IMG/VR virus record: IMGVR_UViG_3300020048_005080
DNA length: 64,000 nt
Reading direction: 5' to 3' (one strand)
Origin: a virus
Shown here: piece after piece, positions 5,294-51,949 of the stretch
Layout: each line of letters begins with the position of its first letter
Numbering within the stretch: position 1 is the stretch's first letter
Position numbers and translations under genes: made by a program
Notes under the pieces: generated by a model
Seen by the model: only the letters and a program-made list of their open reading frames with translations
Told to the model about the DNA's origin: nothing
The model's database searches: none

Positions 5294-5311
5294 CGGATTA
5301 TATATCCGAAT

Positions 5312-8979: not shown

Positions 8980-9900
8980 TTATAATACTTCTAATTGCCA
9001 TAAAAATTTCGAATCAACCGTGTAATCTGAATGTGAATCACATTCTATAACGGAAAAACTGTTTGTTGAATATACATTTTCAAAATACTTAGATAACTCC
9101 AAAAATGAATTGCTGAATATTCCATGAGTCACACAAAGGAATACTTTATTATCTGGAAATTTCTCTTTAATTGCTTTTGAAATCTCTATGAAGGTTCTTC
9201 CTCCATCACAAATATCATCAAAGATTACAAATGTCTTATTAGCATGTGTCATATCCAATGGAACATTTGTACTTACAATTTTACCTGTAGTAATATCTCT
9301 ATGTTTGCTAGCTACAATAACATCGGTTATTCCGTTATGTTCTGCAACATCATAGATTTTCTTTAATGCACCAGCATCAGGAGAAATTATAGCAATATCT
9401 TTCTTGTCAATTGAATGTTCGAAAAATATTCTAGAAATACATTTTTTAGAAAACTCAACGTTAGAGTCTTTTTTAAAATTTATAATACATGATTCTAAAG
9501 CATCTGAATGAGGATCTAACACGATAACTTCTGAATATCCTTGAGCATTTATAATTGGAGAAATTACATCTTTAATATAATTAAATCCACCATCAGAGAA
9601 TTTTCTGTCAGATCTTGCACCAATGAAATAAGGAACGTATAATGAAATATCAGAAACTCCTGCTTCTTTTAATGCTGCAGTTGCACATAAGAGAATCTCG
9701 ACATCTTTAAAATTTCTTAATCTCTTATAAATACGTACGGGGTAACATTTATTAGTACCATATTCATCTTCTTTTTCTTTGTACCAAATTAATGAATCAG
9801 GATCAGTTAGTGTCAAAGATTGTTGTCCGTCAGGAAACTTAGAAATCTTATAAGATATTCCTGTTTGTTCTGGTGTTTCTAGATTAATTATTTTTCTCAT
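8980..9900 (-). CDS. ribose-phosphate pyrophosphokinase (PRPP synthetase) family protein (Prs or ADPR-PP synthetase-like)
   Basis: PRPP-binding loop VIFDDICDGGRTF, Prs-like length, and the N-terminal domain DGQQSLTLTD. Confidence 0.8.
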   Translation of the reverse strand: MRKIINLETPEQTGISYKISKFPDGQQSLTLTDPDSLIWYKEKEDEYGTNKCYPVRIYKRLRNFKDVEILLCATAALKEAGVSDISLYVPYFIGARSDRKFSDGGFNYIKDVISPIINAQGYSEVIVLDPHSDALESCIINFKKDSNVEFSKKCISRIFFEHSIDKKDIAIISPDAGALKKIYDVAEHNGITDVIVASKHRDITTGKIVSTNVPLDMTHANKTFVIFDDICDGGRTFIEISKAIKEKFPDNKVFLCVTHGIFSNSFLELSKYFENVYSTNSFSVIECDSHSDYTVDSKFLWQLEVL

Positions 9901-10480
9901 TCTCTTGTGTTTTTAATTGTTTTTCAATATAATCTGCAATAATAATTACCGCTTCGTCTTGTATCCACCAATGTTCATTACCATTTATAGTAACAGAGAA
10001 ATCCCCGTCTGTTGGATCAAGAACCACTTCATTAATAATGACAACTGGATTTTGCTTTCTTTTCTTTTCTTTATCAAATTTCATAAAAATCTCAGAAGCT
10101 AAACCTACATAATCTTTTCTTCTGATCCTTTCCTTGTAGGCATAATAATAAGTGCTCTCTCCAGTAGGACTGTGAATCACAACCACTTCTAAATCACTCC
10201 AGTCTTTTACCAGCTTCCAATTTTTGTGAATGTAACTTTTTGCTATATTAGCAATGTGTCCCATAGCAGCTAGATGTTTCTGATATTCATCCTTGAATTC
10301 TTTATCAACATAAAATATTGATTCCTTATAACCTTCTTCGAATTCTTCCTCTGTCATGAAGCACGGACTCATTATAGATCCGTGTATAAGATTAGGATGG
10401 TCTTTTTTTCTCGCCATATTCTTTTCTGATTTTATCAACTTCTTCAAAATATCGATCTGCATCATCGTGCCACACATCAA
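9884..10480 (-). CDS. hypothetical protein
   Basis: 198-aa ORF. I checked for NMNAT and 2H motifs and could not confirm either. Confidence 0.5.
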   Translation of the reverse strand: MMCGTMMQIDILKKLIKSEKNMARKKDHPNLIHGSIMSPCFMTEEEFEEGYKESIFYVDKEFKDEYQKHLAAMGHIANIAKSYIHKNWKLVKDWSDLEVVVIHSPTGESTYYYAYKERIRRKDYVGLASEIFMKFDKEKKRKQNPVVIINEVVLDPTDGDFSVTINGNEHWWIQDEAVIIIADYIEKQLKTQENEKNN

Positions 10481-10775
10481 CAGTTCCGTAATAAACTACA
10501 TCTTCTACTTCCTCGATTTTTTTAATTTCATTAGAAACCCATTCTTTATCCGATTCGTTTTTTAGACTATCAAAAAAGAATTGGTATTTCTCTTGATCAC
10601 CTCCGCCAGTACAATCCATTCCCTTAGATATAACAATATCGATTATCTTATCTACAATTTTTCCTTCAGGATCAGGACCACAGTAAACATCAATACAAAA
10701 TCCATATTGTCTGAATTCTCCGACTCTCTTTTTCTTCCTAATTCTTCTGCTGTATTTGCTCCTTTGGAACTCCAT
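10392..10775 (-). CDS. hypothetical protein (first gene of the long minus operon)
   Basis: It lies directly downstream of the conserved promoter cassette at 10790-10840. Confidence 0.45.
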   Translation of the reverse strand: MEFQRSKYSRRIRKKKRVGEFRQYGFCIDVYCGPDPEGKIVDKIIDIVISKGMDCTGGGDQEKYQFFFDSLKNESDKEWVSNEIKKIEEVEDVVYYGTVDVWHDDADRYFEEVDKIRKEYGEKKRPS

Positions 10776-10789
10776 TCTCTTAATTTTAG

Positions 10790-10881
10790 GTAAAGATAGA
10801 AATTTCTTATTGATTAAAAAAACGTTTTAACGAAATTGGATAAATACTTTACTGAATTATAATATATAATGAAAGAATTCT
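10790..10881. promoter_or_regulatory. divergent promoter pair sharing a palindromic TTAAAAAAACGTTTTAA core
   Basis: The minus-oriented cassette AAACGTTTTTTTAATCAATAAGAAATTTCTATCTTTAC drives 10775. The + side, ACGTTTTAACGAAATTGGATAAATACTTTAC, drives 10882. Confidence 0.55.
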
Positions 10882-11283
10882 ATGGAACATTTATTGGAAT
10901 ATGAGAAATTCTCAGGTGATATTTTAAACGAAGCACAGATTGTATATGACGGAGTAAAAATAAGTGCAGCTGGCGACGGAACAGGTAGACTACTTCTAAC
11001 CTACGGTTCAACAAAAAGTTACTATAAGATTAAAGCTAAGGTAAAAAAATTACTAGTTGTTTGGTATGATGGACCAATAGCTGTAGTAAATGCTTGGGAA
11101 AATGAACAAAAAGAATGCTGGGTTAAAGATAATACTGGTAAGCTATTTAAACTTAATAAAGAAACTTTAAAAACTATCGCGGCAAAAGCAAAGGCAAAAG
11201 CTCCATCCATAGAATTAGCAGGAACCGGGGAAATTAAAGGAGTAGAAGGAACATATAATGCAACATTAACCAAAGTTGCTTAA
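10882..11283 (+). CDS. hypothetical protein (N-terminal MEHLLEYEKF tag)
   Basis: 133-aa ORF. Its N-terminus matches the recurring tag. Confidence 0.5.
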   Translation: MEHLLEYEKFSGDILNEAQIVYDGVKISAAGDGTGRLLLTYGSTKSYYKIKAKVKKLLVVWYDGPIAVVNAWENEQKECWVKDNTGKLFKLNKETLKTIAAKAKAKAPSIELAGTGEIKGVEGTYNATLTKVA

Positions 11284-11877: not shown

Positions 11878-12270
11878 TCACTTATAGAAAGGATTTAGCT
11901 CGCTTAATACTGAAACGACCTCGTCTATTTTTTTGCAATCGTCTATAAATCCTATTACTTCTTCATCATTCAGATGAAAAAATTCATTATTAGATAGTGT
12001 TCTTTTCGCTTTATATTTTCTATGAAGCCATCTTTCAATTTTCTTATAGTTTTTACTTCTATAAGTTTTAAGCACAGATAAGTCTCCTGAATTCCCGGTT
12101 TTTAATTTCTTTAATCTTTCTTGTGGATCGTTTTTAGTGATTCCGATTTTATACTTCTCTTCGCCGTGCTGGTCTCCTTCTATAATTAGATAAACATAAC
12201 CTTCATTCATATTATATTTATCTTTTATTTTTACGAGAGGAAACTTAAACCTGCAATTAAAATATAACAA
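11878..12270 (-). CDS. GIY-YIG superfamily (T5orf172/MUG113-like) protein
   Basis: GYVYLI...KIGITKNDPQERLKKLKTGNS is the T5orf172-type pattern. Confidence 0.5.
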   Translation of the reverse strand: MLYFNCRFKFPLVKIKDKYNMNEGYVYLIIEGDQHGEEKYKIGITKNDPQERLKKLKTGNSGDLSVLKTYRSKNYKKIERWLHRKYKAKRTLSNNEFFHLNDEEVIGFIDDCKKIDEVVSVLSELNPFYK

Positions 12271-13112: not shown

Positions 13113-13898
13113 ATGCAAGAAACATTAACACTAGCTCAGGCTATGGAAAAATATCATAGACCTGACTTAGCTCCATTAGATAGAGTAAGAGTCAATAAGA
13201 TCTTTGATATAATGATAGACAAAAAACTCTATCCAGTTTATTCTATTCCTGGTTACGAACACCAATTAGGAAAATCTAACGGATGTCCTGATACATGGTG
13301 GTTAGACTGGTCAGATTATGAAGCAACTTCTGACGAGGATGGAGATATACACGAACCTTGTATAAGAGAACTAATCCCTTATATTGACAAAGGAACACAC
13401 AGGACGTGTTGGGAAATTAGATATCGTCAGTTCAATAGAATGAAATACAAGTGGGACGAATGGGACATTAGAAATGGCGGTGTTTGTGAAATGTATGCAA
13501 ACGGTAAATTGGTATACAAATTTCACTCAAGAGAAATAGGTTATGCTCTTTCAAAAGCTCAATCATTAGAAGTGACTCTTTTAGAACACCCGTTTGATTT
13601 TCTTAATCAAGAAAAAGAAGCTGGCAGAAAAATTTGGTACTATGGTCTACCTGCAACTATTAGAATTGGAGTCGAGCCAGGGGAAATTGGTATAGTTCCT
13701 GATTATTCTTATATGAGCAAATCCGACTGGTGGAAAGAACTTAAAAACAAAAAAACTAAGATCACTCCAGAGGGTTATAAAAAAGATGAGGATGATTTCA
13801 TGGACGATGATGATTTCAATGAAAATATGAGAACTGGAGGTTGGATCAATCATGGTGATGCCCTTTGGGACGGGATGATCTGGTGGTTTAGAGATTAA
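13113..13898 (+). CDS. hypothetical protein
   Basis: 261-aa ORF. Confidence 0.5.
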   Translation: MQETLTLAQAMEKYHRPDLAPLDRVRVNKIFDIMIDKKLYPVYSIPGYEHQLGKSNGCPDTWWLDWSDYEATSDEDGDIHEPCIRELIPYIDKGTHRTCWEIRYRQFNRMKYKWDEWDIRNGGVCEMYANGKLVYKFHSREIGYALSKAQSLEVTLLEHPFDFLNQEKEAGRKIWYYGLPATIRIGVEPGEIGIVPDYSYMSKSDWWKELKNKKTKITPEGYKKDEDDFMDDDDFNENMRTGGWINHGDALWDGMIWWFRD

Positions 13899-13939
13899 AA
13901 TCATTTTTTATTACAATTAGTAATTTCTAGATTTGCAAT
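13898..13939 (+). promoter_or_regulatory. promoter cassette (AAATCATTTTTTAT ... TTTCTAGATTTGC)
   Basis: AAATCATTTTTTATTACAATTAGTAATTTCTAGATTTGCAAT sits immediately 5' of the ATG at 13940. The -7 element is TAGATTTG. Confidence 0.55.
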
Positions 13940-14347
13940 ATGGAAAAAATAGCAAAACAGGTTATTGTGATCCGAAAGGATCTTAACATGAGAAAAGGAA
14001 AGATGGTAGCACAAGGTGCTCACGCATCTATGGCAGCAGTACTTGATCAAATGGTTATAAGAAATTGTCCTACAGGAATTCAGGAAAAAACTCTCTCACT
14101 AGAAAGTGGAACACCGATGGAATCTTGGATTAACGGTCTATTCACTAAAGTTTGTGTTTCTGTAGATTCTGAATCGGAATTAATGGAGATATATGAAAAG
14201 GCTAAAGGAGCAGGACTTATTGCATCTATAATCACTGATGCTGGCCTTACTGAATTTGCTGGAGTTCCAACAAAAACATGTATTGCAATTGGACCAAATT
14301 GGTCAGAAGAAGTTAACGAAATAACAGGACATTTAAAACTATTATAA
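13940..14347 (+). CDS. peptidyl-tRNA hydrolase, PTH2 family
   Basis: KQVIVIRKDLNMRKGKMVAQGAHAS and the C-terminus GLIASIITDAGLTEFAGVPTKTCIAIGP...TGHLKLL closely parallel archaeal/eukaryotic PTH2. Confidence 0.8.
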   Translation: MEKIAKQVIVIRKDLNMRKGKMVAQGAHASMAAVLDQMVIRNCPTGIQEKTLSLESGTPMESWINGLFTKVCVSVDSESELMEIYEKAKGAGLIASIITDAGLTEFAGVPTKTCIAIGPNWSEEVNEITGHLKLL

Positions 14348-15534
14348 TGTTACAAGAATTTTTAGATCTTATAGAAAGCAAGTCTCCAGGAGCACAGCCT
14401 CTTCTTATTGTTAAGAGAGGATCGCAGGCTTATGGTACTGCCATTCCCACATCAGATATTGATTATGCTGGAGTTTATATCCAACATATTGATAATATAT
14501 TGGGCTATGGCTACAAAGAGCAGATCAATGATGATAAGAATGACACTGTTTTTTATGAGATTAAAAGATTCTTAGATCTTGTATCTACAAATAACCCGAC
14601 TATTTTAGAGCTCTTAAACACACCAGAAGACTGCATTCTATATAAACACCCATTGATAGGTGAGATACTTCAGCACAGAGACAAATTCATCACTAAAAAG
14701 TGTTCTAATTCATTTGCTGGGTATGCTATTCAACAGATTAAGAAGGCAAAAGGACAGGACAAGAAACAAAACTGGGAGAAAGACAAAGTAACACGTAAAG
14801 ACGTTCTAGACTTTTGCTATGTTATAAAAGGAGAAAAATCTATGCCTTGGAAAGTTTGGAGCGAAGCCCGTTACGAAGAGAAATTTGTTGGTGTTGTAAA
14901 TTTACCTAATGCAAGGGATGTTTATGCTGTTTATTATGATACTGATTCTCACCTTTGCTTTTCTGAATCAATTCCGGAAGGTTCTAGAAATGTATATAAA
15001 AATAATCGAAAAGAATTAGGACTTGTTATGGGTCTAGGCTATAAAGGTCTAGTTAAGTCGGGTGAAGGTGCTAACGTTGCTGAATCCAACCAATTGAGAC
15101 TTTCAAGTATACCCAAAGGAGAAACCCCTATATGTAATATCATATACAATAAAGATGGTTACACTGCACATTGTAAAGATTATAGAGAATACCAAGAATG
15201 GTTAGATAATCGAAATGAACAGAGATGGACTGATGTTAAGACCCACGATCAGAAGATTGATGGTAAAAATATGATGCACTGTCGTAGACTCCTAGAAATG
15301 GCTAAAGAAATTGCTGAAGGTAAAGGCATTCTTGTAAGAAGAGAAAATGCTCAGGAGCTATTAGCAATTAGAAGAGGAGAGGTTGATCTACAAAGTCTAA
15401 TTGATAGAGCTGAAAATGACATCGTAGAAATTGATAGATTATTTAAAGAATCAGATCTTCCAGAATCGGTTGATCTTGGCTTTATTAATGATTTACTTGT
15501 TTCAGTAAGAAAAGAATTTTACGGATTAGCATAA
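14347..15534 (+). CDS. Pol-beta superfamily nucleotidyltransferase (GS-x9-DxD)
   Basis: RGSQAYGTAIPTSDIDYAGVY is the minimal nucleotidyltransferase signature. I cannot assign the subfamily, which could be RNA-repair associated, OAS-like or CD-NTase-like. Confidence 0.55.
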   Translation: MLQEFLDLIESKSPGAQPLLIVKRGSQAYGTAIPTSDIDYAGVYIQHIDNILGYGYKEQINDDKNDTVFYEIKRFLDLVSTNNPTILELLNTPEDCILYKHPLIGEILQHRDKFITKKCSNSFAGYAIQQIKKAKGQDKKQNWEKDKVTRKDVLDFCYVIKGEKSMPWKVWSEARYEEKFVGVVNLPNARDVYAVYYDTDSHLCFSESIPEGSRNVYKNNRKELGLVMGLGYKGLVKSGEGANVAESNQLRLSSIPKGETPICNIIYNKDGYTAHCKDYREYQEWLDNRNEQRWTDVKTHDQKIDGKNMMHCRRLLEMAKEIAEGKGILVRRENAQELLAIRRGEVDLQSLIDRAENDIVEIDRLFKESDLPESVDLGFINDLLVSVRKEFYGLA

Positions 15535-15551
15535 AGGATATATAGTGTCGT

Positions 15552-17924: not shown

Positions 17925-17987
17925 ATCGATTAATATTTAATATATATCCATTTTGAAAACATTAAATAGTTTTTTAGTATAACCATT

Positions 17988-18815: not shown

Positions 18816-19130
18816 ATGAGTAAAAAAGTTTATCTTATCAAAGGTGCATTAGTCGATACGGAAGGAAAAAAAGAATGGATAGAATCAATAACAGCTTCTA
18901 AAGAAAGAGCAAATAAAATAAAAGCTCAATTGAATCGTTCATTAGAGGATGAGATTATCGTATCAAAAGAAATATTTGATAAGTACACTAAAGAGGGTTC
19001 AGAAGAATTAGAATGGGGTAAAATGGAATTTCACACTGATAATATGACAGATGACGAATTCGAAAAGTTCTGTATTTATAGATACGGAACTAAGATGCCA
19101 TTTAAAATAGAAGTATCAGATCTTGTCTAG
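18816..19130 (+). CDS. hypothetical protein
   Basis: 104-aa ORF. Confidence 0.45.
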   Translation: MSKKVYLIKGALVDTEGKKEWIESITASKERANKIKAQLNRSLEDEIIVSKEIFDKYTKEGSEELEWGKMEFHTDNMTDDEFEKFCIYRYGTKMPFKIEVSDLV

Positions 19131-20002
19131 ATACTTCCTTTTAAATTTCTTCTACTAACAATAGCTTTTATTCTCCTTTCAGCTTTATTAGATACACCTC
19201 TAGCCCATTCAGCGGTTCTTTCAAACGATTCCCCAATTTGTCTAAAAGATTGGGGTTCTTTATTTTCATCTAATCCGTATTTAAGTATAGTGATTTGTCT
19301 TTCCATTGGTTTGAGCTCGGATAATATACTCATTATAGATTTTTTTAAATCCTCATTTATTATATTACTGTCTGTGCTTGTTTCAGATTCTATCCAATTG
19401 ATAGGACTAAAAGAATCATCATCACTAGCATTTGTGCTACTTTCTAAAGGAATCGATCTTGGTGTATTTTTAATAGTTTCTATAGCTGATGCTGATAATT
19501 GAATATCCGTGTTCTCTTCTATTATTAATAACATTTCATCAATCGAAGGTTCTCTTCCGTGATAAGAAATAAAGCTTTCTTCCAGAGTTTGGTATTGTCT
19601 TAATTGTTGTGTGATATTAGTAGGGATTCTAACAGATCTTGAATTATTGTTCAGATACAGAAATATATTTTTTCTGATATGCCATACAGCATAACTGATA
19701 AATTTAAAACCTGTAGACGGATCGAAAGTTTCTATAGCTTCTACTAGACCTTTATTACCTTCAGATATTAGATCCTCTAAAGGATTTTGTTGTGAAGCAT
19801 AAGCTTTAGCAACAGATACAACAAATCTTAGATTTGATTTTAATATAAGCTCTTTAGCTTTAAGATCTCCATTTTTTGATTTAACTGCTAATTCAGCTTC
19901 TTTCTCAGGACTTAATATTTCATACTTACTTATTTCAGTGAAATATCTAGATATATTATCGTTAGTATTTGTAATTCTATTGATAATCTTAAATTCCCTC
20001 AT
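19127..20002 (-). CDS. RNA polymerase sigma-70 family factor (divergent)
   Basis: Region 2 is LRFVVSVAKAYASQQNPLEDLISEGNKGLVEAIETFDPSTGFKFISYAVWHIRKNI. Region 4 is the helix-turn-helix SFRQIGESFERTAEWARGVSNKAERRIK. Confidence 0.75.
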   Translation of the reverse strand: MREFKIINRITNTNDNISRYFTEISKYEILSPEKEAELAVKSKNGDLKAKELILKSNLRFVVSVAKAYASQQNPLEDLISEGNKGLVEAIETFDPSTGFKFISYAVWHIRKNIFLYLNNNSRSVRIPTNITQQLRQYQTLEESFISYHGREPSIDEMLLIIEENTDIQLSASAIETIKNTPRSIPLESSTNASDDDSFSPINWIESETSTDSNIINEDLKKSIMSILSELKPMERQITILKYGLDENKEPQSFRQIGESFERTAEWARGVSNKAERRIKAIVSRRNLKGSI

Positions 20003-20048: not shown

Positions 20049-20255
20049 TTACAAAGGATTTTGATTTTTGTTTTTTTCCATCCACATTTTAGCTCCATTT
20101 CCAAGCATATCAAAAATGTCATTCGAAGGCATTTCCGACTGTTGCATATGTTTTTTGAACTCTTTATTAGCTTCTGGGTCTACACCTGCTGCTTTATTCA
20201 TTGCATCAAGTTTTTTCTTGATATTTTCTAAATACTCGTTATAGTTTGGAATCAT
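20049..20255 (-). CDS. hypothetical protein
   Basis: 68-aa ORF. Confidence 0.4.
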   Translation of the reverse strand: MIPNYNEYLENIKKKLDAMNKAAGVDPEANKEFKKHMQQSEMPSNDIFDMLGNGAKMWMEKNKNQNPL

Positions 20256-20277
20256 ATTTTTCTTTTTTTAACAATGT

Positions 20278-20339
20278 ATATATTAAATCATTTTTTTTAT
20301 CAATAAGAAATTTCTAATATTGCAAGGTAATTAAAAAAT
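20278..20339 (+). promoter_or_regulatory. promoter cassette
   Basis: AAATCATTTTTTTTATCAATAAGAAATTTCTAATATTGCAAGG. The segment TCAATAAGAAATTTCTA is identical to the 10775 promoter. Confidence 0.55.
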
Positions 20340-20651
20340 ATGGAAACTTCTAAAAGCGATTACAGATTCAGATTCATAAGCGATGTTCTAGTTATAGAGG
20401 ATCTAAATCTAGGAAGAATGTCAGTAACAAATAATGCTGAAGATGTTATTTCAGAAATAAGAACAAGTACCGACAGAAGATTGACTGAACATTTTATAAT
20501 CTATAAAGATAGCGATGGAGTTTGGGATCAAATGATTCCTTCATATTCTTTAACAGGTTGCTCTGAAGTTTTTTTTAAACATATCGGAGAAACTAATCTT
20601 GAAGATGCTATTATAAAACTAAGAGAATCATTAACTTTAAAACACCAATAA
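20340..20651 (+). CDS. hypothetical protein
   Basis: 103-aa ORF. Confidence 0.45.
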   Translation: METSKSDYRFRFISDVLVIEDLNLGRMSVTNNAEDVISEIRTSTDRRLTEHFIIYKDSDGVWDQMIPSYSLTGCSEVFFKHIGETNLEDAIIKLRESLTLKHQ

Positions 20652-20657: not shown

Positions 20658-22184
20658 ATGATAAATCCAGCTCTGCTAACAGACGGGTATAAAACTGGGC
20701 ATCACCAGCAATATCCCAAGGGAACGACATTAGTCTATTCCAATTTTACACCAAGAAGCAACAAGTACGCACCTAAGGGATGTGATATGGTAGTTTCTTT
20801 CGGACAACAATTAATCATGAAGCAAATTCACGAGAGTTTTAGAAAAGATTTCTTTGATCAACCAAAAGAAGCAGTATGTAAAGAGATTAGAGAGGAGCTC
20901 TCTTTATACCTAGGTGTAGATTATGACACAAGTCATTTCGAAGCTCTTCATGATCTTGGACATCTTCCTATTAAAGTTAAAGCATTACCAGAAGGCACAT
21001 TGGTTCCTATTAAAGTTCCAGTTTTAACTATCTACAATACAAACCCAGATTTTTACTGGATAACAAATTATTTGGAAACCCTAGTTTCTAATCTTCTTTG
21101 GAAACCAATAACCTCAGCAACTATTGCATTCCAATACAAAAGAGTACTTACAGAATGGGCTCTTAAAACAAATCAAGAAGCTAAAGAATTTGTTTACTGG
21201 CAAGGACACGATTTCTCTATGAGAGGTTTAGATTCTATTGATGCTGTAGTTTCATCTGGACTTGGTCACTTAACATCATTCTACGGTACGGATTCTCTTC
21301 CAGCAATTTACGGAGCACGTAAATTCTACGGAGCAGAAGGATTTGTTGGAGGCTCAGTTCCTGCAACAGAACACTCAGTTATGTGTGCAGGTGGTAAAGA
21401 AGACGAGATTGATACGTTCAGAAGATTACTTGAAACATATCCTAAAGGAATTCTTTCTGTAGTATCTGATACATGGGATTTATGGAAAGTGTGTACAGAA
21501 CACGTAGTCACTTTGAAAGATGAAATTCTTGCTCGTGATGGTAAATTAGTTATACGTCCTGACTCAGGAGATCCGGTTGATATTCTTTGTGGGTGGGGTG
21601 GCTTTGATCCTGAAGGTGAAAGCGAAGAAGCTAAAAATGAGCCACAAAATAAAGGAGTAATTGAATTACTTTGGGACGTATTTGGCGGAACAGTCAATGC
21701 TCAAGGTTACAAAGTACTTGACCCACACATCGGAGCTATCTATGGGGATTCAATCACAATCGACAGAGCAAATGAAATCTGCGCAAGACTAGAAGCAAAA
21801 GGATTCGCATCAACAAATGTTGTATTAGGGGTTGGTTCTTTCACTTATCAATATAACACTCGTGACACATTTGGTTTTGCAATGAAAGCAACGTATGTCG
21901 AAGTAAATAAACCAAAATTCGAAGGCGATTTCAATCCAGAAGGACGTGAGATCTTTAAAGATCCTATCACAGATGATGGAACAAAAAAATCTGCAACGGG
22001 ATTATTAAGTGTTCACAGTCATGATGGCGAATTGGTTTTAATTGACAAATGTACATGGGAAGGTGAAGAGGTTAGTTTATTACAAACAATTTACCAAGAC
22101 GGTATTTTTCACAATCCAGTTACTCTAAATGAAATCAGAGAGAAATTAGATAAAGCTATACATTTACAATTCGAATTAGCTTAA
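20658..22184 (+). CDS. nadV: nicotinamide phosphoribosyltransferase (NAMPT family)
   Basis: N-terminus MINPALLTDGYKTGHHQQYPKGT. The 508-aa length and colinear conservation are typical of NadV/NAMPT. Confidence 0.85.
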   Translation: MINPALLTDGYKTGHHQQYPKGTTLVYSNFTPRSNKYAPKGCDMVVSFGQQLIMKQIHESFRKDFFDQPKEAVCKEIREELSLYLGVDYDTSHFEALHDLGHLPIKVKALPEGTLVPIKVPVLTIYNTNPDFYWITNYLETLVSNLLWKPITSATIAFQYKRVLTEWALKTNQEAKEFVYWQGHDFSMRGLDSIDAVVSSGLGHLTSFYGTDSLPAIYGARKFYGAEGFVGGSVPATEHSVMCAGGKEDEIDTFRRLLETYPKGILSVVSDTWDLWKVCTEHVVTLKDEILARDGKLVIRPDSGDPVDILCGWGGFDPEGESEEAKNEPQNKGVIELLWDVFGGTVNAQGYKVLDPHIGAIYGDSITIDRANEICARLEAKGFASTNVVLGVGSFTYQYNTRDTFGFAMKATYVEVNKPKFEGDFNPEGREIFKDPITDDGTKKSATGLLSVHSHDGELVLIDKCTWEGEEVSLLQTIYQDGIFHNPVTLNEIREKLDKAIHLQFELA

Positions 22185-27184: not shown

Positions 27185-27572
27185 TTCTTATCACCGATCC
27201 CTGTCCGTGCATAACTTGAATAATGTAAGATCCCATATAATAAGCTTCTCCCGTGAACATATTCAGATATTTTTCATCTGTACATTCTTTGCAATATTTC
27301 TTTGCGTATCCTAAAGCTATCCATAGAAGAGATTCTCTAGGTTCATATCCTAAAGAATATTCTCTTCTTACGTATTCATCAGAATCGTATTTTTCTATTA
27401 ACTTCTCAAGATAAGCGTCAATATCGGACTCTGCTAATTTTTTGAATTTTTCGATCCATCTATCTTTACGCTCTTCCTCTCTTTTTATTTTGTTTCCAAA
27501 TTCCTCAATGGATTTCTTACCCTCTTCGGTATCTAAAAATTCTCTCAATTTTTCTACCATGCTTTTACTCAT
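27168..27572 (-). CDS. hypothetical protein
   Basis: 134-aa ORF. Confidence 0.5.
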   Translation of the reverse strand: MSKSMVEKLREFLDTEEGKKSIEEFGNKIKREEERKDRWIEKFKKLAESDIDAYLEKLIEKYDSDEYVRREYSLGYEPRESLLWIALGYAKKYCKECTDEKYLNMFTGEAYYMGSYIIQVMHGQGSVIRIDKML

Positions 27573-28303
27573 AACTCAAATGTTGGTTTTAACCATATGC
27601 CCCTGCTGAAAACTAATTTAGTAAATCCAGGTAATGTATTTTCAACTTCTCTAAAAAGATCTAAAGATGCAACAGTGTCGTGCTTCATCATCTTAAAAAC
27701 TTCCTCTCTAATTCTTTCTGCAGAAACAACCTTCTCAAGCTTTTCTAAAATTTCAGGTTGTGTCATTGCAGAAATAATATCGTAATTTATTAGAAATCCC
27801 TTAGTAACCGCAAATCTTAAGGCTCTTAAAAACCTTAAAGGATCATCCATCATAGTCTGCTCAGCTGGAAGTGGTGTTCTTAATATTTTTCTTTCTAAAT
27901 CTTCTTTACCTCCAAATAGATCTATGATGTTTCCATCATCATCCTCTGCCATAGCATTTAGAGTAAAGTCTCTCCTGATAAGATCATCTTCCAAAGTTCC
28001 AAGAACCAAAATTGGCTGTCTTGTCCCCTGTACATATCCAATCTCTTTTCTTGCCATTACAAAATCTGCAACTAGTCCTTCGTTTTTATGTCCTTTTGGA
28101 AACTTAGCTCTGATAGTAAAACAATCAGGAGTAGACAAGAATATACTAAATGCCTCTTGGGCTAGCCAATTTGTCATTGATTGAAATCCTTCTTCTACTG
28201 TCTGATCTAGATTATCTAGAATAAATGTGAAATCGATATCTTTAGATTCTACGCCTAATAGCTTATCCCTTACACATCCTCCAACTTTAAATATCTGTGG
28301 CAT
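27569..28303 (-). CDS. tRNA nucleotidyltransferase (CCA-adding / poly(A) polymerase head domain, class II), minimal
   Basis: VGGCVRDKLLGVESKDIDFTF matches GGxVRD...DxD, and RRDFTLNAMA is the class II NTase motif. Confidence 0.8.
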   Translation of the reverse strand: MPQIFKVGGCVRDKLLGVESKDIDFTFILDNLDQTVEEGFQSMTNWLAQEAFSIFLSTPDCFTIRAKFPKGHKNEGLVADFVMARKEIGYVQGTRQPILVLGTLEDDLIRRDFTLNAMAEDDDGNIIDLFGGKEDLERKILRTPLPAEQTMMDDPLRFLRALRFAVTKGFLINYDIISAMTQPEILEKLEKVVSAERIREEVFKMMKHDTVASLDLFREVENTLPGFTKLVFSRGIWLKPTFEL

Positions 28304-28309: not shown

Positions 28310-28356
28310 TATTTTTTGTAAAGATAGAAAAAACTAATTAAATTAAAAAATGATTC
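28310..28356 (-). promoter_or_regulatory. promoter cassette
   Basis: On the minus strand: GAATCATTTTTTAATTTAATTAGTTTTTTCTATCTTTAC, about 20 nt before the ATG at 28303. Confidence 0.55.
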
Positions 28357-28382
28357 ATAAAAAAAGGCCCGAAGGCCTTTTA
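28357..28382 (-). terminator. rho-independent terminator (bidirectional hairpin)
   Basis: AAAAAAAGGCCCGAAGGCCTTTT is a perfect GC stem flanked by an A-run and a T-run. Confidence 0.7.
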
Positions 28383-29400: not shown

Positions 29401-29538
29401 AAAGAGCATCCCGAAAAAATGTTTTATTACGTAAATCAGTTAAACATAGTCAAACAGCGGAAAGCTAGAACACAGGCAAATGTAAAATAAACTGAGCCTC
29501 CAACTTTTTATTTCAACGAGATGCTCAAAAATTATAGC

Positions 29539-31192: not shown

Positions 31193-32968
31193 TTATTGTC
31201 CTAAGATTGAAATCTCTACTCTTCGGTTTTGTGCTCTTCCTGCTGCATTTGAATTGCTAGCAATTGGATTTGAAGATCCGTATCCTTTAGATTGTAGACG
31301 TGTAGAAGTCATACCTTTTTGCTTTAAGTAATTAAGTACTGATAAAGCTCTTTGTTCAGATAAAGGAAGGTTGATAGACTCACTACCTACATTATCTGTA
31401 TAACCTCCGATAAGTACTTTAGTACCATCTGCTGTTACTGCGTCTTGAAAAATCTCATCTAATACACTCATAGAAGATGCAGAGATTTGAGCAGATCCTG
31501 TGACGAACTCGATGTGATAAGATTTATTACCAATCTTATTTGTCATCTTAGTGTTCGTATAGTCTGTCAAATTGATCTTACCTTGTAATAGATCTGGGTT
31601 GTTTGCTACAACTGACATTAGGATCGATTTATCAAATGCTTTAGAGTAATCTAAGTATGATGGTAAATCGCTAGAGTAATACTTAGACTGTAATGTACCG
31701 AATGTATTATAGATTGCTCTGTAGATGTCCGTGTTGTCAGTTTTACCTTCTACATAAATACCTAACATATTCGCCATATCACCCAAGTTAAATACCATCG
31801 AACCTCCTAAGTGTGTGTCATCGTCAGTTTTAATACCGTTGTAGTATGTGTACCAATATTGACCATTTTGTTCGTCGTAAATTTTAGCATTCAATCCGCA
31901 AGCAAATCTTTTAGCATCATCGAATGTACGGATTTGATCCCCTGCAATAGCAGTGCATTTAGTGATTTCCTCTGCTGCTGTACGGTGATCGTTTAACCAC
32001 TTACGACATGTGATAGTGATGTTAGGCATAATTGAAGAATATTCTTTAGTAGAGATAATAGTTACTCCGCCACGTCCATTCTTAGCATTAACGTCACCAG
32101 GTGTCCAAGTAGCAACTAAGTCCGCTCTTACTGTAGTGTCACGTCCAATAGTTTTACCGTCTTTCATGATCTTACGTGTTTCTCTATATCCTGAGTTGTA
32201 TTTAACTACAGCATCTAAGAAATCTTTACAGTACATGAAGTTAAGAGCATCAGGATCATATGTTGTTTCGTCTACGTTAACTTTTACACCATTGTCTCCT
32301 GCTAATTTAAGAGCTAAGTCTAAGTCTCCATCCATACGATAACCAACGATTGTTGCTCCTTTTAGATTTTGCTTATTGTTCTTGTATTTGATATCTCCAA
32401 TAACTTGGTCTTCTCCATAAGATTTACCAGTTGTTAAGAAGGCTACCGGCTGATATTCAGGACCTAAATCTTTCACTGCATTTGAAATACCTGTAATATA
32501 AGAAGGAATTCCTGATCCCATAAAGGTGATGAATACACCTGGTGTGTTAGGATTGCTTTTATACTCCTTACAGAATTTAACTAATTCAGCGCAAGATTGA
32601 GCACAGTCGTCTTGACGGATAAGGCTGATATCCAAACCTGAGCGATCAAATAAAGATCCTTTTGTTGTTTGTTTACCTCCATTTGCATAAGCAATACCGT
32701 TTTGTGATTGCCAAGCCATGATGTACCAATTAACTTTAGTACCTCCGTTGTTTGCAGGTTCAGCTGAAGGAAAGTTCAACTTGATAGCTGCTTTTCCAGA
32801 TAATGAAGCTTCGGGAGCGTCTGGAATTGCCACTTGTCCGAATGTTTTTGAGTCTTCTACTTCGTGTGGTCTGTTGTCCCACCATAACACTTTAAGTGCG
32901 AAGATTACTGCTACAGCGAATAGTCCAATAACGACTTTACCGCTTGTTTTTAACTTTACATTTGCCAT
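31193..32968 (-). CDS. periplasmic substrate-binding-like protein fused to a C-terminal OmpA/MotB peptidoglycan-binding domain
   Basis: N-terminal signal anchor and an SBP-like body. The C-terminal OmpA signature is DNVGSESINLPLSEQRALSVLNYL...RRVEISI. Confidence 0.7.
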   Translation of the reverse strand: MANVKLKTSGKVVIGLFAVAVIFALKVLWWDNRPHEVEDSKTFGQVAIPDAPEASLSGKAAIKLNFPSAEPANNGGTKVNWYIMAWQSQNGIAYANGGKQTTKGSLFDRSGLDISLIRQDDCAQSCAELVKFCKEYKSNPNTPGVFITFMGSGIPSYITGISNAVKDLGPEYQPVAFLTTGKSYGEDQVIGDIKYKNNKQNLKGATIVGYRMDGDLDLALKLAGDNGVKVNVDETTYDPDALNFMYCKDFLDAVVKYNSGYRETRKIMKDGKTIGRDTTVRADLVATWTPGDVNAKNGRGGVTIISTKEYSSIMPNITITCRKWLNDHRTAAEEITKCTAIAGDQIRTFDDAKRFACGLNAKIYDEQNGQYWYTYYNGIKTDDDTHLGGSMVFNLGDMANMLGIYVEGKTDNTDIYRAIYNTFGTLQSKYYSSDLPSYLDYSKAFDKSILMSVVANNPDLLQGKINLTDYTNTKMTNKIGNKSYHIEFVTGSAQISASSMSVLDEIFQDAVTADGTKVLIGGYTDNVGSESINLPLSEQRALSVLNYLKQKGMTSTRLQSKGYGSSNPIASNSNAAGRAQNRRVEISILGQ

Positions 32969-33008
32969 TTTGTTTTTCTTTTTAAATTAATACTGATTTT
33001 TACTGATT

Positions 33009-34699: not shown

Positions 34700-34752
34700 A
34701 ATTATGGTGTAAAGATAGAAACTTCCATTTGATAAAAAAAACGTTTCCTTCA
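34700..34752 (-). promoter_or_regulatory. promoter cassette
   Basis: On the minus strand: GAAACGTTTTTTTTATCAAATGGAAGTTTCTATCTTTAC. Confidence 0.5.
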
Positions 34753-34823
34753 TTTTTTACTGAAATTTACTGAAAAAATTTCAATACCCCTTATATTATT
34801 AAAAAACACGCACGCGTATGACC

Positions 34824-36034: not shown

Positions 36035-36685
36035 TTATATATCTGTTGATTCAATAAGTGTATAAGAGAATTTATTTCCGTGAATTTTTGCTGCTTTTTT
36101 ACAAATCGCTAGAAAAGCATCAAAATCTTTTACTCTTTTAAATACCTGACATCCTTCGCTCCAGTTTTCTACCCATGTAGAATCCGTACCTGCTTTATGA
36201 ATATTAATACCGAACATACCTGTGTCAGTTACTTTCTCTTCAAAAAGTAAATCTTTGTTAGCATCTCGCCAAACTGTAACATTACCGTTTCTTTGGCAAA
36301 GAGCTTCATATTTACCTTGATGTTTATCGATAGACCATACTCCTCTGTATTGTCCAGGAACTAATCTTGCAACACCTTTATTGTTATGAAATTCCATAAC
36401 TCCTTTTTTACCTGGGTCACATGTAGCATTCCAAGCATAATATTGCCAATTTTTACTTTCATCTTTAAATGAAATAGTTAGCGTGTCATCAAAAACGTTA
36501 GTAACTTTATCTGCTATTGACGGAGCGTTATTTCTAACGCCAACAATATTAACATCATAAGTTTTGTTTGATGTGTCTTCAAACCAAGCATAGCCTTTTG
36601 CTTTAACTGCTTTTTCTATCTGTTCTCTTGTATAACTCATTTTTTTGTTTTTATTTTGTAATTTTTTTATATTAATCAAAACCAA
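36035..36685 (-). CDS. L,D-transpeptidase (YkuD)-like cell-wall enzyme
   Basis: GINIHKAGTDSTWVENWSEGCQVFKR resembles the YkuD catalytic motif IHG...SHGC(I/V)R. I consider this tentative. Confidence 0.4.
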   Translation of the reverse strand: MVLINIKKLQNKNKKMSYTREQIEKAVKAKGYAWFEDTSNKTYDVNIVGVRNNAPSIADKVTNVFDDTLTISFKDESKNWQYYAWNATCDPGKKGVMEFHNNKGVARLVPGQYRGVWSIDKHQGKYEALCQRNGNVTVWRDANKDLLFEEKVTDTGMFGINIHKAGTDSTWVENWSEGCQVFKRVKDFDAFLAICKKAAKIHGNKFSYTLIESTDI

Positions 36686-37827
36686 TTTTTAGGATTCCAT
36701 TTTGATTTTTTAGCATCTTCTGCAGCTTTATTTAAAGCATCTTGTGTTTCTCTAGCTACTCTTTCTGTTTCTCTTTGTGTTGCTTCAGCTGCTTCTCTAG
36801 CTACTCTTTCTGTTTCTCTTTGTGCTGCTTCAGCTGCTTCTTGTGTTTCTTTAGCTACTCTTTCTGTTTCTTTTTGAGCAGCAGCTGCTTGTTCTGCTAA
36901 GACTCTATCAGCTTCATCAGCTAAACGTTTAGCTTCTGCTGCTTGTTCATCAGCAAATTTTTGAGCTGCTTCAGCTTGTTCTTTAGCAATTCTTTCCGCT
37001 TCACCGTCAGCAATTGCATTACCTAAGTCAATAGCAGGATTCAAATCTAGATTAACATTAACATCGGCGTCAAGTCCAACTAGTAAAGCAGCTTCTCCGC
37101 TAATCCCTACGCTTACTTCTCCATCGTTAAAAGTTCCATGTGCTTCACCTTCAGCGCCAACTTGAACGCCAATACTAGCTCCAGCTGAACCACTTGCCTC
37201 TGCACCTCCAATTGGAGTATTGACACCAACAGTTCCACCAGCTTCAACACCAACACCGGCACCGGCCATAGCTCCACCGCCAACATCCACACCATGTTCG
37301 CCTACAGTAGCGTGTCCTTCTACTCCAGCGTGTGCTTCCGCGTAAGCACCTGCGTGTCCTTCAGCATCTGCTTCAACCTTAACCTCACCTAGTGGAGTAT
37401 CAAGTCCTGCTTCAGCATGAGCTTCTGCACTTGCTTCAACTTCAACTCTAGCGCTAACTTCTGCACCTGCTTCTATTTTAGCATCCGATCCGTCCCATCC
37501 CGCTTCTGCGTGTGCTTCTGCACTTGCCTCTGCACTTGCGTGTGCTTCCGCCCGAGCATCAACCTCTGCACCAATACTTACTCCCCCGCCTAAATCTTGG
37601 CTTGCGTGAGCTTCTGCATTTGCATCTACATTTACTTCAGCACTTACCTCTGCTTCCGCACTTGCATGAGCCATAGTACCATCGATACCTGCTTCTGCAC
37701 TTACATGAGCTTCTGCTGAAGCATCATAACTTGCATCTGAACTTGCTCCTAGATTTTCATTTCCTGTTTGTGTTGATACATTCCCATTTAAAGATGCGCT
37801 TGCTCCTATTTCTACTTCTTCGTTCAT
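36676..37827 (-). CDS. Ala/Glu/His/Gly-rich repeat protein with C-terminal coiled-coil repeats
   Basis: AEAHASAEA-type repeats, and a C-terminal RETERVA(R/K)E repeat matching about 42-bp DNA tandem repeats at 36720-36900. There is a local GC-rich island. Confidence 0.55.
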   Translation of the reverse strand: MNEEVEIGASASLNGNVSTQTGNENLGASSDASYDASAEAHVSAEAGIDGTMAHASAEAEVSAEVNVDANAEAHASQDLGGGVSIGAEVDARAEAHASAEASAEAHAEAGWDGSDAKIEAGAEVSARVEVEASAEAHAEAGLDTPLGEVKVEADAEGHAGAYAEAHAGVEGHATVGEHGVDVGGGAMAGAGVGVEAGGTVGVNTPIGGAEASGSAGASIGVQVGAEGEAHGTFNDGEVSVGISGEAALLVGLDADVNVNLDLNPAIDLGNAIADGEAERIAKEQAEAAQKFADEQAAEAKRLADEADRVLAEQAAAAQKETERVAKETQEAAEAAQRETERVAREAAEATQRETERVARETQDALNKAAEDAKKSKWNPKNWF

Positions 37828-38987: not shown

Positions 38988-39028
38988 AGAGATATATTTT
39001 ATTTATATATCCATATGACATTTATAAA

Positions 39029-39679: not shown

Positions 39680-40255
39680 CTAATTGTTTTTATTCTCGCT
39701 GGCGTATTTAACACCCATGATAGTACCAACTATTGAGAAAGCATTAGTCAGAAGAATACCAAACATATTACTCCATGTAGATCCTATGATCTGTGTGTCC
39801 TTTCCTGTCATCATTGCAATTCCGTACATAATAGTCGTAATAACACCAACACTTATAATAACTAATAAAGCAACTTTAACAATTGTTCCTATAAGTTCTG
39901 TCTGTGATTTTTTTTGCATTACGTCTAAATCGTTTAATGCAATATCTTTTGCTTCTAGAGCTTCATTTTTAGAATCCTCTGCTTCATGTAATGCAATCTT
40001 AAGCTCCTCGTTTATTCTTGTATTCTCCTCTTCAGAAGCTTGGAGCTCACGATTTCGTTCTTGTACCTGTTTAGTTATTTCAAGTCTTTTCCTCCTACCG
40101 TCTTTATCCTTCTCTATTGATACGGAGAGATAATTTTTAAAATCATTATCTCCATCCTCTGCCTCAAGGATCTTTAGTATATTACCTTCTAAGCTTACCC
40201 TTTTTGTTTTTTGTATTTCAAGTAAGCAATCCCTGACTTCTTTACTTACTTTCAT
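39680..40255 (-). CDS. coiled-coil protein with C-terminal TM helices
   Basis: 191-aa ORF. Confidence 0.5.
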   Translation of the reverse strand: MKVSKEVRDCLLEIQKTKRVSLEGNILKILEAEDGDNDFKNYLSVSIEKDKDGRRKRLEITKQVQERNRELQASEEENTRINEELKIALHEAEDSKNEALEAKDIALNDLDVMQKKSQTELIGTIVKVALLVIISVGVITTIMYGIAMMTGKDTQIIGSTWSNMFGILLTNAFSIVGTIMGVKYASENKNN

Positions 40256-40686
40256 TACTTATAAATCTTAAATGGATTTGTTCTATTTTTGTATCCTGGA
40301 AAATCATTTTTGAAATCCTCTAATCTTGGTTCAATATCATCTGATTTTATAATCCAAAATTGAGCACCTGCTTTAACTGCTTTAGCTTGTTCTTCTGGTT
40401 CATTAGAGGAAGATATTATTCCAATAACAACATTATTACCATACTCAAAATTAATCTTACGGATTAATTCTATACCATCATAGGAAGATCCAATTATGTT
40501 TAGGTCTACAAATACACATTCAGGTTTTCCGTCTGGATTTTTTTGCCATTCTGCAAAAAGTCTAGCAGCTTCATCTGAGCTATCAAGACTTTCTAAAGAA
40601 AGTGAAATATCAAGAAGACTGCAAGCATCTTCAAATACAAGATGAAATAGACTTTCGTCATCTACTAATAAAATTGAATCAATCAT
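40255..40686 (-). CDS. response regulator receiver (REC-only) protein
   Basis: ILLVDDE and FVDLNI are the phospho-acceptor context. The protein is CheY-like in size. Confidence 0.7.
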   Translation of the reverse strand: MIDSILLVDDESLFHLVFEDACSLLDISLSLESLDSSDEAARLFAEWQKNPDGKPECVFVDLNIIGSSYDGIELIRKINFEYGNNVVIGIISSSNEPEEQAKAVKAGAQFWIIKSDDIEPRLEDFKNDFPGYKNRTNPFKIYK

Positions 40687-42814: not shown

Positions 42815-42870
42815 TGAGAATATTTTCTTTTATATATCCCCCCGTGCCAAAAAAATCGATATGGAATTAT

Positions 42871-43194: not shown

Positions 43195-43346
43195 AGCTTA
43201 GGCTTAATAAAATTAATTCCAATTAAGAATATCATAACTAAATTAGTAGTTAGGTGAAGACCCCTTCCGTTGTATTTATAGCAAAGAATATTTCCAATGG
43301 CTAAGGCAATTAGTAAAATAATTGGAAAGATATATTTTTTTATCAT
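43191..43346 (-). CDS. small membrane protein (51 aa, below the track threshold)
   Basis: MIKKYIFPIILLIALAIG... with ATGA overlaps on both sides. Confidence 0.25.
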   Translation of the reverse strand: MIKKYIFPIILLIALAIGNILCYKYNGRGLHLTTNLVMIFLIGINFIKPKL

Positions 43347-44164
43347 ACTTCTAAATCTAAAATTAGTACATCATCATAATCATCCCATGGACAATCAACT
43401 AAATAATGTGTGACCTCTCCACAGATAATATCTTTTATCATTTTTTGTGGAGTGTGTCCAACTATCTGATTAACCCCTTCTAAAGGAAAATCATTTAGTA
43501 TTGTGGGCCTAACCCAGAAAGGCCCTGCCCATAAGTTATAGCCTCCGCTGTGTGCATCAACATTAAATATGTTATCGACTCTGAGCTCAAATAGATCATT
43601 TATAAATTTTTCCAGATCATTAGGATCAAAATCTTTAGTTATTTCATGTTTTTTATATCTTGGGTTATTAATATCTCTACAAACATCTTTTAGCCATCCG
43701 TTAGTAACTCCTGCATGTGTCCATAAATACTTAACACCTGTATTATCTTTTTCTAAATGAGCCGCTTTAAAACATTCTTTATTATCAGTAAATAATTGAT
43801 AAAGATCTGGCTTCATTTCTGCTCTATATCCGCTACAAACTTCGTTGGGAACAAAATATTGAATATCGTGATTTCCAAGTAAAAGTACAACCTTGTCAGG
43901 TAATGCTTTTTTGAAGAAAAGTATTTTTTTAAGATTGTCTAGGATTGTAACATTGCTAATATCAAAGCTGTCTACATAATCTCCGACGAATATGATTTGA
44001 TCATATTCAGTATAAGGCATTTCTTTCCAAAATTCTTCAGCATCTGCTGGAACTCCATTTTCAACCATTGTCATCCAGTGATTGAATTCATAAGGGCTTC
44101 CGTGTGTATGAAACATCCACTTATCCCGCCCATGAACATCCCCTAATGTTAAAATCTTCTTCAT
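43343..44164 (-). CDS. Ser/Thr phosphatase-like metallophosphoesterase
   Basis: LGDVHG, GDYVD and LLGNHD. Confidence 0.75.
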   Translation of the reverse strand: MKKILTLGDVHGRDKWMFHTHGSPYEFNHWMTMVENGVPADAEEFWKEMPYTEYDQIIFVGDYVDSFDISNVTILDNLKKILFFKKALPDKVVLLLGNHDIQYFVPNEVCSGYRAEMKPDLYQLFTDNKECFKAAHLEKDNTGVKYLWTHAGVTNGWLKDVCRDINNPRYKKHEITKDFDPNDLEKFINDLFELRVDNIFNVDAHSGGYNLWAGPFWVRPTILNDFPLEGVNQIVGHTPQKMIKDIICGEVTHYLVDCPWDDYDDVLILDLEV

Positions 44165-44204
44165 GCTGTAAATTTAATAGAAAATTCGGTAAGTAAAAAA
44201 CGAT

Positions 44205-50177: not shown

Positions 50178-50289
50178 ATACTAATCTTAGACCTTTGTCG
50201 TTAAAAGTCTCTACTACAGAACCGCCAGGAATATGGCTTTCTGGATTTGTCCGGTAATTATCCAGGACCTTAATAATTTTTTCACCCAT
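50077..50289 (-). CDS. hypothetical protein
   Basis: 70-aa ORF, the first gene after the promoter cassette at 50295-50345. Confidence 0.4.
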   Translation of the reverse strand: MGEKIIKVLDNYRTNPESHIPGGSVVETFNDKGLRLVYDKIKNPGAYIKRITKDESIIKVYVDGELKFER

Positions 50290-50294: not shown

Positions 50295-50345
50295 TTATTT
50301 TGGGTAAATATAGAAACTTCTAGTTGTATAAAAAAATGATTTCAG
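50295..50345 (-). promoter_or_regulatory. promoter cassette
   Basis: On the minus strand: GAAATCATTTTTTTATACAACTAGAAGTTTCTATATTTACC. Confidence 0.55.
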
Positions 50346-51913: not shown

Positions 51914-51949
51914 ATACTATATATCAAAAAAAATGTACGTGTTTTTAAA

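Follow-up and report, generated by a model that had tools for sequence, protein, structure and literature searches.

A bipartite repeat of about 42 nt occurs in ten full copies in a 64,000-nt stretch of viral DNA (IMG/VR record IMGVR_UViG_3300020048_005080; hereafter the window). The repeat is real and conserved and very probably constitutes a promoter family, which we read, with moderate confidence, as specific to a clade of phages and of the Bacteroidota sigma-A type. An initial annotation of the window had described a cassette of roughly 45 nt ahead of at least ten transcription units, and anchoring its eleven stretches on C(A/G)TTTTT yielded a 42-nt matrix and the consensus rRAATC(A/G)TTTTTT-N-tAGAAtTTTC-TAnnTT(T/A)(G/A)c. 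This description was borne out, since ten sites matched the matrix (itself built from the copies) at 27-46 bits, with the next best site in the window scoring 12.6 bits. Nine of the ten copies that had been listed held, while the stretch at 62049-62090 carried only the upstream box and a copy at 44167-44208 had been overlooked. In all ten full copies the gap between C(A/G)TTTTT and the TA of TAnnTT(T/A)(G/A) was exactly 19 nt, even in the 56884 and 44167 copies, whose TCTA is out of phase.

Fifty Markov-shuffled windows gave a maximum of 23.4 bits and a mean of 12.0, and leave-one-out matrices scored the cassettes at 12-42 bits. All ten were located between open reading frames (ORFs), intergenic DNA making up 4.5% of the window and coding DNA 95.5%, and all ten were co-oriented with the next ORF. 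At the level of single words, the upstream box AATCATTTTTT occurred 27 times in the window with at most one mismatch (14.5 expected) and TTTCTANNTTTR 8 times (2.6 expected), and CATTTTTT and ATCATTTT were among the top words in an unbiased 8-mer count of intergenic DNA versus the whole window. The 17-mer TCAATAAGAAATTTCTA, previously noticed as identical in two copies, was located in both, at 10797-10813(-) and 20300-20316(+).

Promoters of the Bacteroidota primary sigma factor (sigma ABfr) consist of a -7 TAnnTTTG and a -33 TTTG (PMC7366714, PMC2483708, PMC9330008); in F. johnsoniae the -33 box was reported not to be identifiable (PMC7366714). The downstream element of the repeat had been assigned to this -7 type, and the repeat indeed behaves as a promoter cassette with such a box. 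Like sigma ABfr promoters, it combines a -7 TAnnTT(T/A)(G/A) with a T-rich segment at about -33 and is followed by short A-rich 5′ untranslated regions (5′UTRs) with TAAAA-like sequences, and the phage has a sigma-A ortholog of its own, whose DNA-reading residues are unchanged. Unlike them, it has an invariant AATC(A/G) before the T-run and AGAA and TTTC in the spacer, and its whole 42 nt are conserved, far past the host consensus. TAnnTTTG occurred 72 times in the window, eight of these sites being intergenic and three of those eight lying within cassettes, and this scarcity of other intergenic TAnnTTTG counts in favor of a sigma-A-type promoter. E. coli-type -35/-10 promoters were not enriched in the window (88, 69 and 96 found versus 93, 84 and 101 expected), and a search of the window DNA for Rfam families and transfer RNAs (tRNAs) returned none.

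Indirect evidence for a fixed transcription start, a point on which the initial annotation had staked its promoter reading, comes from the spacing between the cassette and the downstream gene. An ORF of at least 30 codons started within 90 nt of 107 of the 118 distinct cassettes collected from fetched loci, and the distance from the end of the -7 box to its start codon was 4 nt in 10 cases, 5 nt in 3 and 14-40 nt in 93, with none at 6-13 nt (a single cassette, at 2 nt, apparently has a miscalled start). Such bimodality is what would be predicted if transcription started at a fixed point about 5 nt past the -7 box. The 4-5 nt class would then represent leaderless mRNAs beginning at the AUG (in the window, those of PTH2 at 13940 and of a phosphatase at 44164), the 14-40 nt class predicted 5′UTRs of about 10-36 nt, and the empty class 5′UTRs of 1-9 nt. 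Given that start, TAnnTTTG spans -12 to -5, TTTC -16 to -13, AGAA -21 to -18, the T-run -36 to -30 and AATCA -41 to -37. Many cassette-driven 5′UTRs of the more distant relatives (loci L004, L012, L028, L034, L049 and L060) also carry (a)aGTAACCAATTAAAc a few nt past the predicted start, with weaker ATAATTAAAA-like versions in the 5′UTRs of the window; this sequence could act in translation or mRNA stability, the phylum being one that makes no use of Shine-Dalgarno sequences.

An exact-pattern scan of viral contigs returned 70 loci, most matches coming from a few large contigs, namely IMGVR_UViG_3300036770_006296 (206 kb), 3300032307_000764 (248 kb), 3300027734_000044 (130 kb), 3300035670_000118 and 3300044953_000377. 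Contigs 3300009068_000049, 3300042307_001176 and 3300032219_002522 shared 72-84% nucleotide identity with the window. Dozens of cassettes are present in related viral contigs of 130-250 kb: the pieces fetched from one 248 kb contig had at least 40 copies, and 17 lay on one strand within 11 kb in L004, each ahead of a small ORF. The matrix scan found many more copies than the exact pattern, and the 118 distinct cassettes from the fetched loci gave the family consensus rRAATCATTTTTTtnTTtaaatAGAAtTTTCTAyATT(T/A)Gc, in which the T and A at -12/-11 and the TT at -8/-7 of the -7 box are at least 99% conserved and the final G is present in 70%. In alignments A1-A3 the two boxes alone were invariant, the spacer and flanks having diverged or become unalignable.

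Loci that were fetched via the sigma protein, independently of the motif, carried a cassette at the same place 5′ of the sigma gene. It was kept in L074, L075, L062, L043/L160, L071-73 and L157-159, with sigma proteins down to about 68% identity, and its boxes were invariant between flanks that could not be aligned. When 222 kb of Bacteroidota chromosome flanking rpoD were scanned with the matrix, no match reached 15 bits. Contigs at a greater distance, viral or cellular, that carry sigma-A-like genes had ordinary TTG-N20-21-TAnnTTTG promoters instead. The upstream element had been proposed to be an extra, phage-specific one, and its phage specificity is supported by this absence from Bacteroidota DNA and by its conservation within the clade. 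It is not extra, however: from about -41 to -30, the AATCATTTTTT box lies at the -33 position and therefore occupies the place of the host -33 box instead of standing upstream of the promoter.

Several observations weigh against a promoter family of the sigma-A type. Exact TAnnTTTG is present in only 3 of the 10 window copies, five others ending in A (TAnnTTTA) and two reading TTAG or ATTG (TACATTAG or TAATATTG). The frequency of G across the T-run is 0.00 in the 118 cassettes, meaning that the G of the host -33 TTG/TTTG is missing; in view of the TTG-N20-21-TAnnTTTG rpoD promoters found elsewhere, the cassette is not simply an optimised host promoter. The invariant C at about -38, together with the exact phasing, suggests base-specific recognition by some protein. 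Furthermore, the family consensus is partly biased, most loci having been fetched with an exact pattern derived from the motif, and transcription from the cassette, the sigma factor that reads it, the binder of the upstream box, the start sites and the timing are all points that we infer.

The missing G and the invariant C would also fit a promoter of the middle type, in which sigma A reads the -7 box and an early phage activator, MotA-like, binds the AATCATTTTTT box, the promoter remaining silent until that activator is made. The layout is that of T4 middle promoters, in which a host -10 is combined with a MotA box that replaces the -35 at a fixed distance (PMC2988021): a host-type -7 is joined to a phage box in the -33 place over a 19-nt gap (10/10), the -33 G is absent in all cassettes, the C implies sequence-specific binding, and the box is absent from host-like DNA. 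Nevertheless, the cassette box is unrelated in sequence to the MotA box and lies about 7 nt further upstream (centre at about -36, against -30). Pfam scans of about three quarters of the window (the remaining ~16 of 64 kb being the first 8 kb, 58.9-60.5 kb and small pieces, and the window itself being only 64 kb of a genome that is probably longer than 150 kb) did not reveal MotA, AsiA or another activator candidate. Moreover, few alternative host-type promoters are available in the window for immediate-early genes, and the small-ORF arrays, each with its cassette, look like early regions. We consider a middle-type promoter possible but unlikely.

For the sigma-A-type promoter family, the sigma factors of the phage are informative, and the two that had been noticed in the window both exist. 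The gene at 58872-59738(-) encodes a full-length sigma-A ortholog of 288 amino acids with Sigma70 regions r1.2, r2, r3 and r4. In a genome scan it was 57-66% identical over residues 1-288 to 80 cellular RpoD genes from Flavobacteriales, Crocinitomicaceae, Bacteroidales and others. The core of its region 2.4, WWIRQSIL (FISYAVWWIRQSIL), is identical to that of cellular sigma A, and its 4.2 helix, (S/T)RER(A/V)RQIKEK, keeps the R-E-R-x-R-Q...K contact residues. With about 287 amino acids, no region 1.1 and conserved regions 2.4 and 4.2, it has the features of a Bacteroidota primary sigma factor; no Bacteroidota sigma A was present among the matches to solved structures. Database proteins that are 70-98% identical to it belong to syntenic phage relatives, and those named "primary sigma factor" (70% identical) were for this reason rejected as the host sigma.

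The sigma-A ortholog was present in every cassette-rich contig checked, and its gene stood behind a cassette in every relative examined. Since the sigma gene itself is behind a cassette, something earlier, most simply host sigma A, must read the cassettes first, and judging from its residues the phage ortholog could read them too. Covariation between sigma region 4.2 and the boxes across subclades, looked for by eye in 4.2 alignments and cassette listings, gave no pattern.

The second sigma gene, at 19127-20002(-), encodes a sigma-70-family protein of 291 amino acids (Pfam and NCBIfam sigma-70 matches) with 35% identity to the sigma-A ortholog. Its region 2.4 reads VWHIRKNIF and its 4.2 helix TAEWARGVSNK, changes that are common to its three viral orthologs. 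No cassette was found upstream of the gene, which follows a conserved 68-residue ORF with a AATATATA box upstream. In E. coli sigma-70, the counterparts of the changed residues read position -12 and the -35 element. A remodelled region 4.2 might recognise the AATCATTTTTT box, this divergent sigma rather than sigma A then being the reader of the cassette, which would agree with the initial annotation's proposal that one of the two phage sigma factors reads it. Its conserved differences at the -35-contact equivalents do argue for a specificity of its own, and its clade is also that of the cassette, L236 and L238 having come from contigs with cassettes. However, its region 2.4 has changed as well (WHIRKNIF versus WWIRQSIL), and yet the cassette keeps an exact host-type -7, which makes a sigma with a host-type region 2 (host sigma A or the phage copy) the natural reader and the divergent sigma the poorer candidate. 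The -10-only (G)GATATATA class of sites described below fits a degenerate region 4 better, and only three viral orthologs of the divergent sigma were found, as opposed to a sigma-A ortholog in every cassette-rich contig checked. That it reads the cassette thus seems doubtful to us.

The sigma-A-type promoter family would work as follows. Host RNA polymerase with a sigma-A-type factor would bind TAnnTT(T/A)(G/A) at about -12 to -5 and start about 5 nt past the box. The reader at the start of infection would be host sigma A, which the phage ortholog would later probably join or replace. AATC(A/G)TTTTTT at about -41 to -30 would stand in for the host -33 TTG/TTTG, with AGAA and TTTC extending the consensus, and such an unusually information-rich promoter would mark phage DNA. 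The cassettes probably form an early, pre-replicative class, because the units behind them are T4-early-like small-ORF arrays (in relatives), small genes of unknown function, and tRNA-repair, nicotinamide adenine dinucleotide (NAD)-salvage, phosphatase and sigma genes.

This arrangement recalls the early promoters of T4, which are host-sigma promoters with additional conserved positions (PMC2988021). In both cases there are many copies per genome ahead of short early-looking units, a host-type core element and extra conserved positions, here along about 45 nt, in a lineage with a gp23 capsid and no polymerase of its own. T4 early promoters, in contrast, have an excellent host -35 where the cassette has its -33 replaced, and the host here is a member of the Bacteroidota, with another promoter grammar. 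With T4 middle promoters the cassette shares the host-type downstream element and a phage box in the -35/-33 place. Unlike T4, the cassette phage encodes RpoD-like sigma factors.

Copies of the cassette are in some cases preceded by a hairpin and T-run, namely GGCCTTCGGGCC directly 5′ of the 28317 copy, a terminator-like hairpin at 34851-34829 about 80 nt 5′ of the 34708 copy, and several in relatives. Together with near-identical copies (the shared 17-mer, and duplicates in L008/L041), these might indicate that the cassette is not primarily a promoter but a recombination or mobility module, a terminator or pause site, or a translation signal. PeSL promoter-terminator cassettes, through which T4-like phages shuffle genes (PMC2839356, PMC4122927), are similar in being reiterated, in flanking small variable ORFs and in following terminator hairpins in some copies. 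Most window copies, unlike PeSLs, lack a stem-loop: a hairpin scan that covered all but the last 4 kb (the 63578 copy) found one directly upstream only at 28317, and none at the other eight copies besides 34708. In addition, there was no Rfam match, the orientation is strictly tied to the downstream gene, an exact known -7 element stands at fixed phase, and other readings do not easily account for leaderless ATGs 4-5 nt away. A shuffling role would add to promoter function, as in PeSLs, and not replace it. We therefore regard a cassette that is primarily something other than a promoter as very improbable.

The window also contains a second class of motif, (G)GATATATA and GATAAATA, with the consensus (G)GATA(T/A)ATA. 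It occurs 17 times, 14 of which are 4-35 nt 5′ of a co-oriented start codon, with sites at 5299-5306(-), 10839-10846(+), 12215-12222(-), 15537-15544(+), 17941-17948(-), 36036-36043(-), 39004-39011(-), 42831-42838(-), 51918-51925(-), 54546-54553(-), 55076-55083(-), 56401-56408(-), 58851-58858(-) and 62067-62074(-). Exact GATATATA stood 4-23 nt 5′ of a co-oriented start in 11 of 12 cases, the twelfth (42831-42838) lying 16 nt from a GTG at 42814 and 64 nt from the ATG of the gene model used. Related loci totalling 280 kb had 62 GATATATA sites, 56 of them 4-27 nt 5′ of an ORF start, compared with 8% of random positions and 0/61 in reverse orientation, and the spacing was again bimodal (4-7 nt or 14-27 nt). 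No upstream partner element was found to accompany the GATATATA box. The class resembles the T4 late promoter, TATAAATA, and one may speculate that it is read by the divergent sigma, whose degenerate region 4 suits a -10-only box better. A 138-nt gap without an ORF at 29401-29538 contains a canonical TACATTTG at 29477-29484(-), outside any cassette, and may hold a small RNA or a short unannotated ORF.

Taken jointly, and only tentatively, these elements could delineate a clade of T4-related jumbo phages of freshwater Flavobacteriia with a two-class promoter code and two sigma factors derived from host sigma A, in which the cassette is the first class and the -10-only (G)GATATATA box, which may be read by the divergent sigma, the second. 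The AATCATTTTTT box could then work by a mechanism undescribed in Bacteroidota, such as a new activator or appropriation system, or the escape of the sigma-A copy from a phage-imposed block of the host sigma. If true, no earlier temporal promoter grammar would be on record for Bacteroidota phages dependent on the host polymerase. Promoter use by these phages is essentially undescribed, and our literature searches yielded no motif of the cassette kind. Reiterated phage promoter families are already well known, and what is new is the host phylum and the phage clade. For this uncultured clade of jumbo phages the cassette furthermore marks transcription units as well as gene starts (two starts were corrected here), it predicts leaderless mRNAs, and it is a strong candidate promoter part for Flavobacteriia. 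It is also a possible system for studying in what way Bacteroidota sigma A employs the -33 element or does without it, a question on which the host-type -7 with its replaced -33, the sigma copy under a cassette and the T4-late-like second class all bear.

One second-class site lies in the spacer at 10790-10881, where the initial annotation had seen two cassettes fused head to head around a palindrome. A plus-strand cassette in this spacer was rejected: nothing on the plus strand of 10830-10881 was among the 40 best matrix matches (the lowest at 2.8 bits), and the orthologs lack the palindrome. The palindrome amounts to AAAACGTTTT only and is private to this genome, and it arises because CG in the 10789 copy replaces the TCA of most others. 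In L035 and L064 the orthologous copies retain both boxes, but the spacers have AAATCATTTT, reading AAAATCATTTT and TAAATCATTTT (alignment A1). In all three genomes TTGGATAAATACTTT is invariant on the plus strand, and the GATAAATA box at 10839-10846(+) (GGATAAATA with a preceding G) is conserved in the orthologs and is the candidate promoter of the divergent gene 10882-11283. The spacer thus holds two divergent promoter-like elements of different kinds, not fused cassettes.

The minus-strand cassette of this spacer (10789-10830; 42.7 bits) has a variant AAAACGTTTTTTT box and the -7 box TATCTTTA, and precedes gene 10392-10775 and a long minus-strand operon beyond. On the plus strand, the copy at 13896-13937 (44.8 bits; -7 box TAGATTTG) is followed, 4 nt past its G, by the ATG of the PTH2 gene (13940-14347), with PTH2 and RlaP downstream (Pfam), and its ortholog in L035 has the same 4-nt spacing. 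The other plus-strand copy, at 20283-20324 (40.0 bits; -7 box TAATATTG), precedes gene 20340-20651 and the NAMPT gene 20658-22184 (Pfam). Directly 5′ of it, at 20247-20288(+), is a degenerate cassette-like stretch (12.6 bits; GGAATCATATTTTTC...) that may be the remnant of a tandem duplication.

The remaining copies are on the minus strand. That at 28317-28358 (41.1 bits, 43.5 bits in its L002 ortholog; -7 box TATCTTTA) precedes a CCA-adding/poly(A)-polymerase-like gene (27569-28303; Pfam PolyA_pol). The 34708-34749 copy (39.4 bits; GAAACGTTTTTTTT box, -7 box TATCTTTA) places the true start of the gene behind it at 34678 (MGLIDYF...), not 34753, judging by the position of the cassette and by the translation. 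Just 5′ of this cassette, TCAGTAAA forms a tandem pair (34756-34763 and 34766-34773(-)). This word is enriched between genes (6 of 9 occurrences), with further sites at 32999-33006(-), 54537-54544(-) and 10848-10855(-), stands as TCAGTAAAAATCAGTA ahead of gene 31193-32968, and may be an operator-like site.

Two copies score lower. At 44167-44208 (27.3 bits), a AAATCGTTTTTT box and the -7 box TAAATTTA are separated by the 19-nt gap, the ATG of a metallophosphatase gene (43343-44164; Pfam Metallophos) lies 4 nt past the -7 box, and the orthologous region of L054 aligns across the cassette position. At 56884-56925 (26.7 bits), TCTA is shifted by 2 nt with TAGATTTG at the standard 19-nt gap; this copy precedes a lipoprotein-like gene (56413-56871), and its orthologs in L062 and L074 score 30-31 bits. 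The top score, 46.5 bits, belongs to the copy at 50303-50344 (-7 box TATATTTA), which precedes a conserved 70-residue ORF (50077-50289; true gene start 50289) and in an alignment with L074, L011 and L054 showed both boxes invariant and the spacer diverged. The copy at 59763-59804 (38.9 bits; -7 box TACATTAG) precedes the phage sigma-A ortholog, and that at 63578-63619 (37.9 bits, 35.0 bits in its L033 ortholog; -7 box TATATTTG) precedes gene 63261-63560. The partial copy at 62049-62090(-), ahead of gene 60510-62048, consists of a AAAATCATTTTTTT box only, followed by GATATATA at 62067-62074; it has no TAnnTTTG at cassette spacing and is not among the matrix matches.

At about 32% G+C, the window represents a portion of an uncultured large phage whose whole genome probably exceeds 150 kb. 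It encodes a Gp23-like protein, NAMPT, PTH2, an RlaP nucleotidyltransferase, a CCA-adding-like enzyme, ClpP, a deoxyhypusine synthase, an S-adenosylmethionine decarboxylase, a sensor kinase with a response regulator, and a GH19 lysin. Such a repertoire agrees with that of the group 2 jumbo phages of Iyer et al., with a capsid of the gp23 type, phage sigma factors that include RpoD-like ones, and no phage RNA polymerase (PMC7824862). No close cultured relatives were found: the only nucleotide match was one of 74% in the NAMPT gene, to a crAss-like phage, and protein matches to isolates reached at most 42% (sigma), 31% (helicase) and 25% (gp23-like).

Most of the genes for NAD salvage (NAMPT, 20658-22184(+); a phosphoribosyl-pyrophosphate-synthetase-like gene, 8980-9900(-)) and for tRNA or translation repair (PTH2 and RlaP, 13940-15534(+); the CCA-adding-like gene, 27569-28303(-)) are directly behind cassettes. 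A GAF-PAS-PAS histidine kinase and an adjacent response-regulator receiver protein are encoded at 40255-42766(-), with a GGGGGATATATA box upstream. The deoxyhypusine synthase (51981-52961(-)) and S-adenosylmethionine decarboxylase (54151-54522(-)) genes, whose order is kept in L071-L075, suggest a phage-driven polyamine or hypusine-like modification. Finally, 36676-37827(-) and 60510-62048(-) encode low-complexity proteins, one with long AEAHA/SAEA repeats and the other with an N-terminal (ATGAAPA)n.

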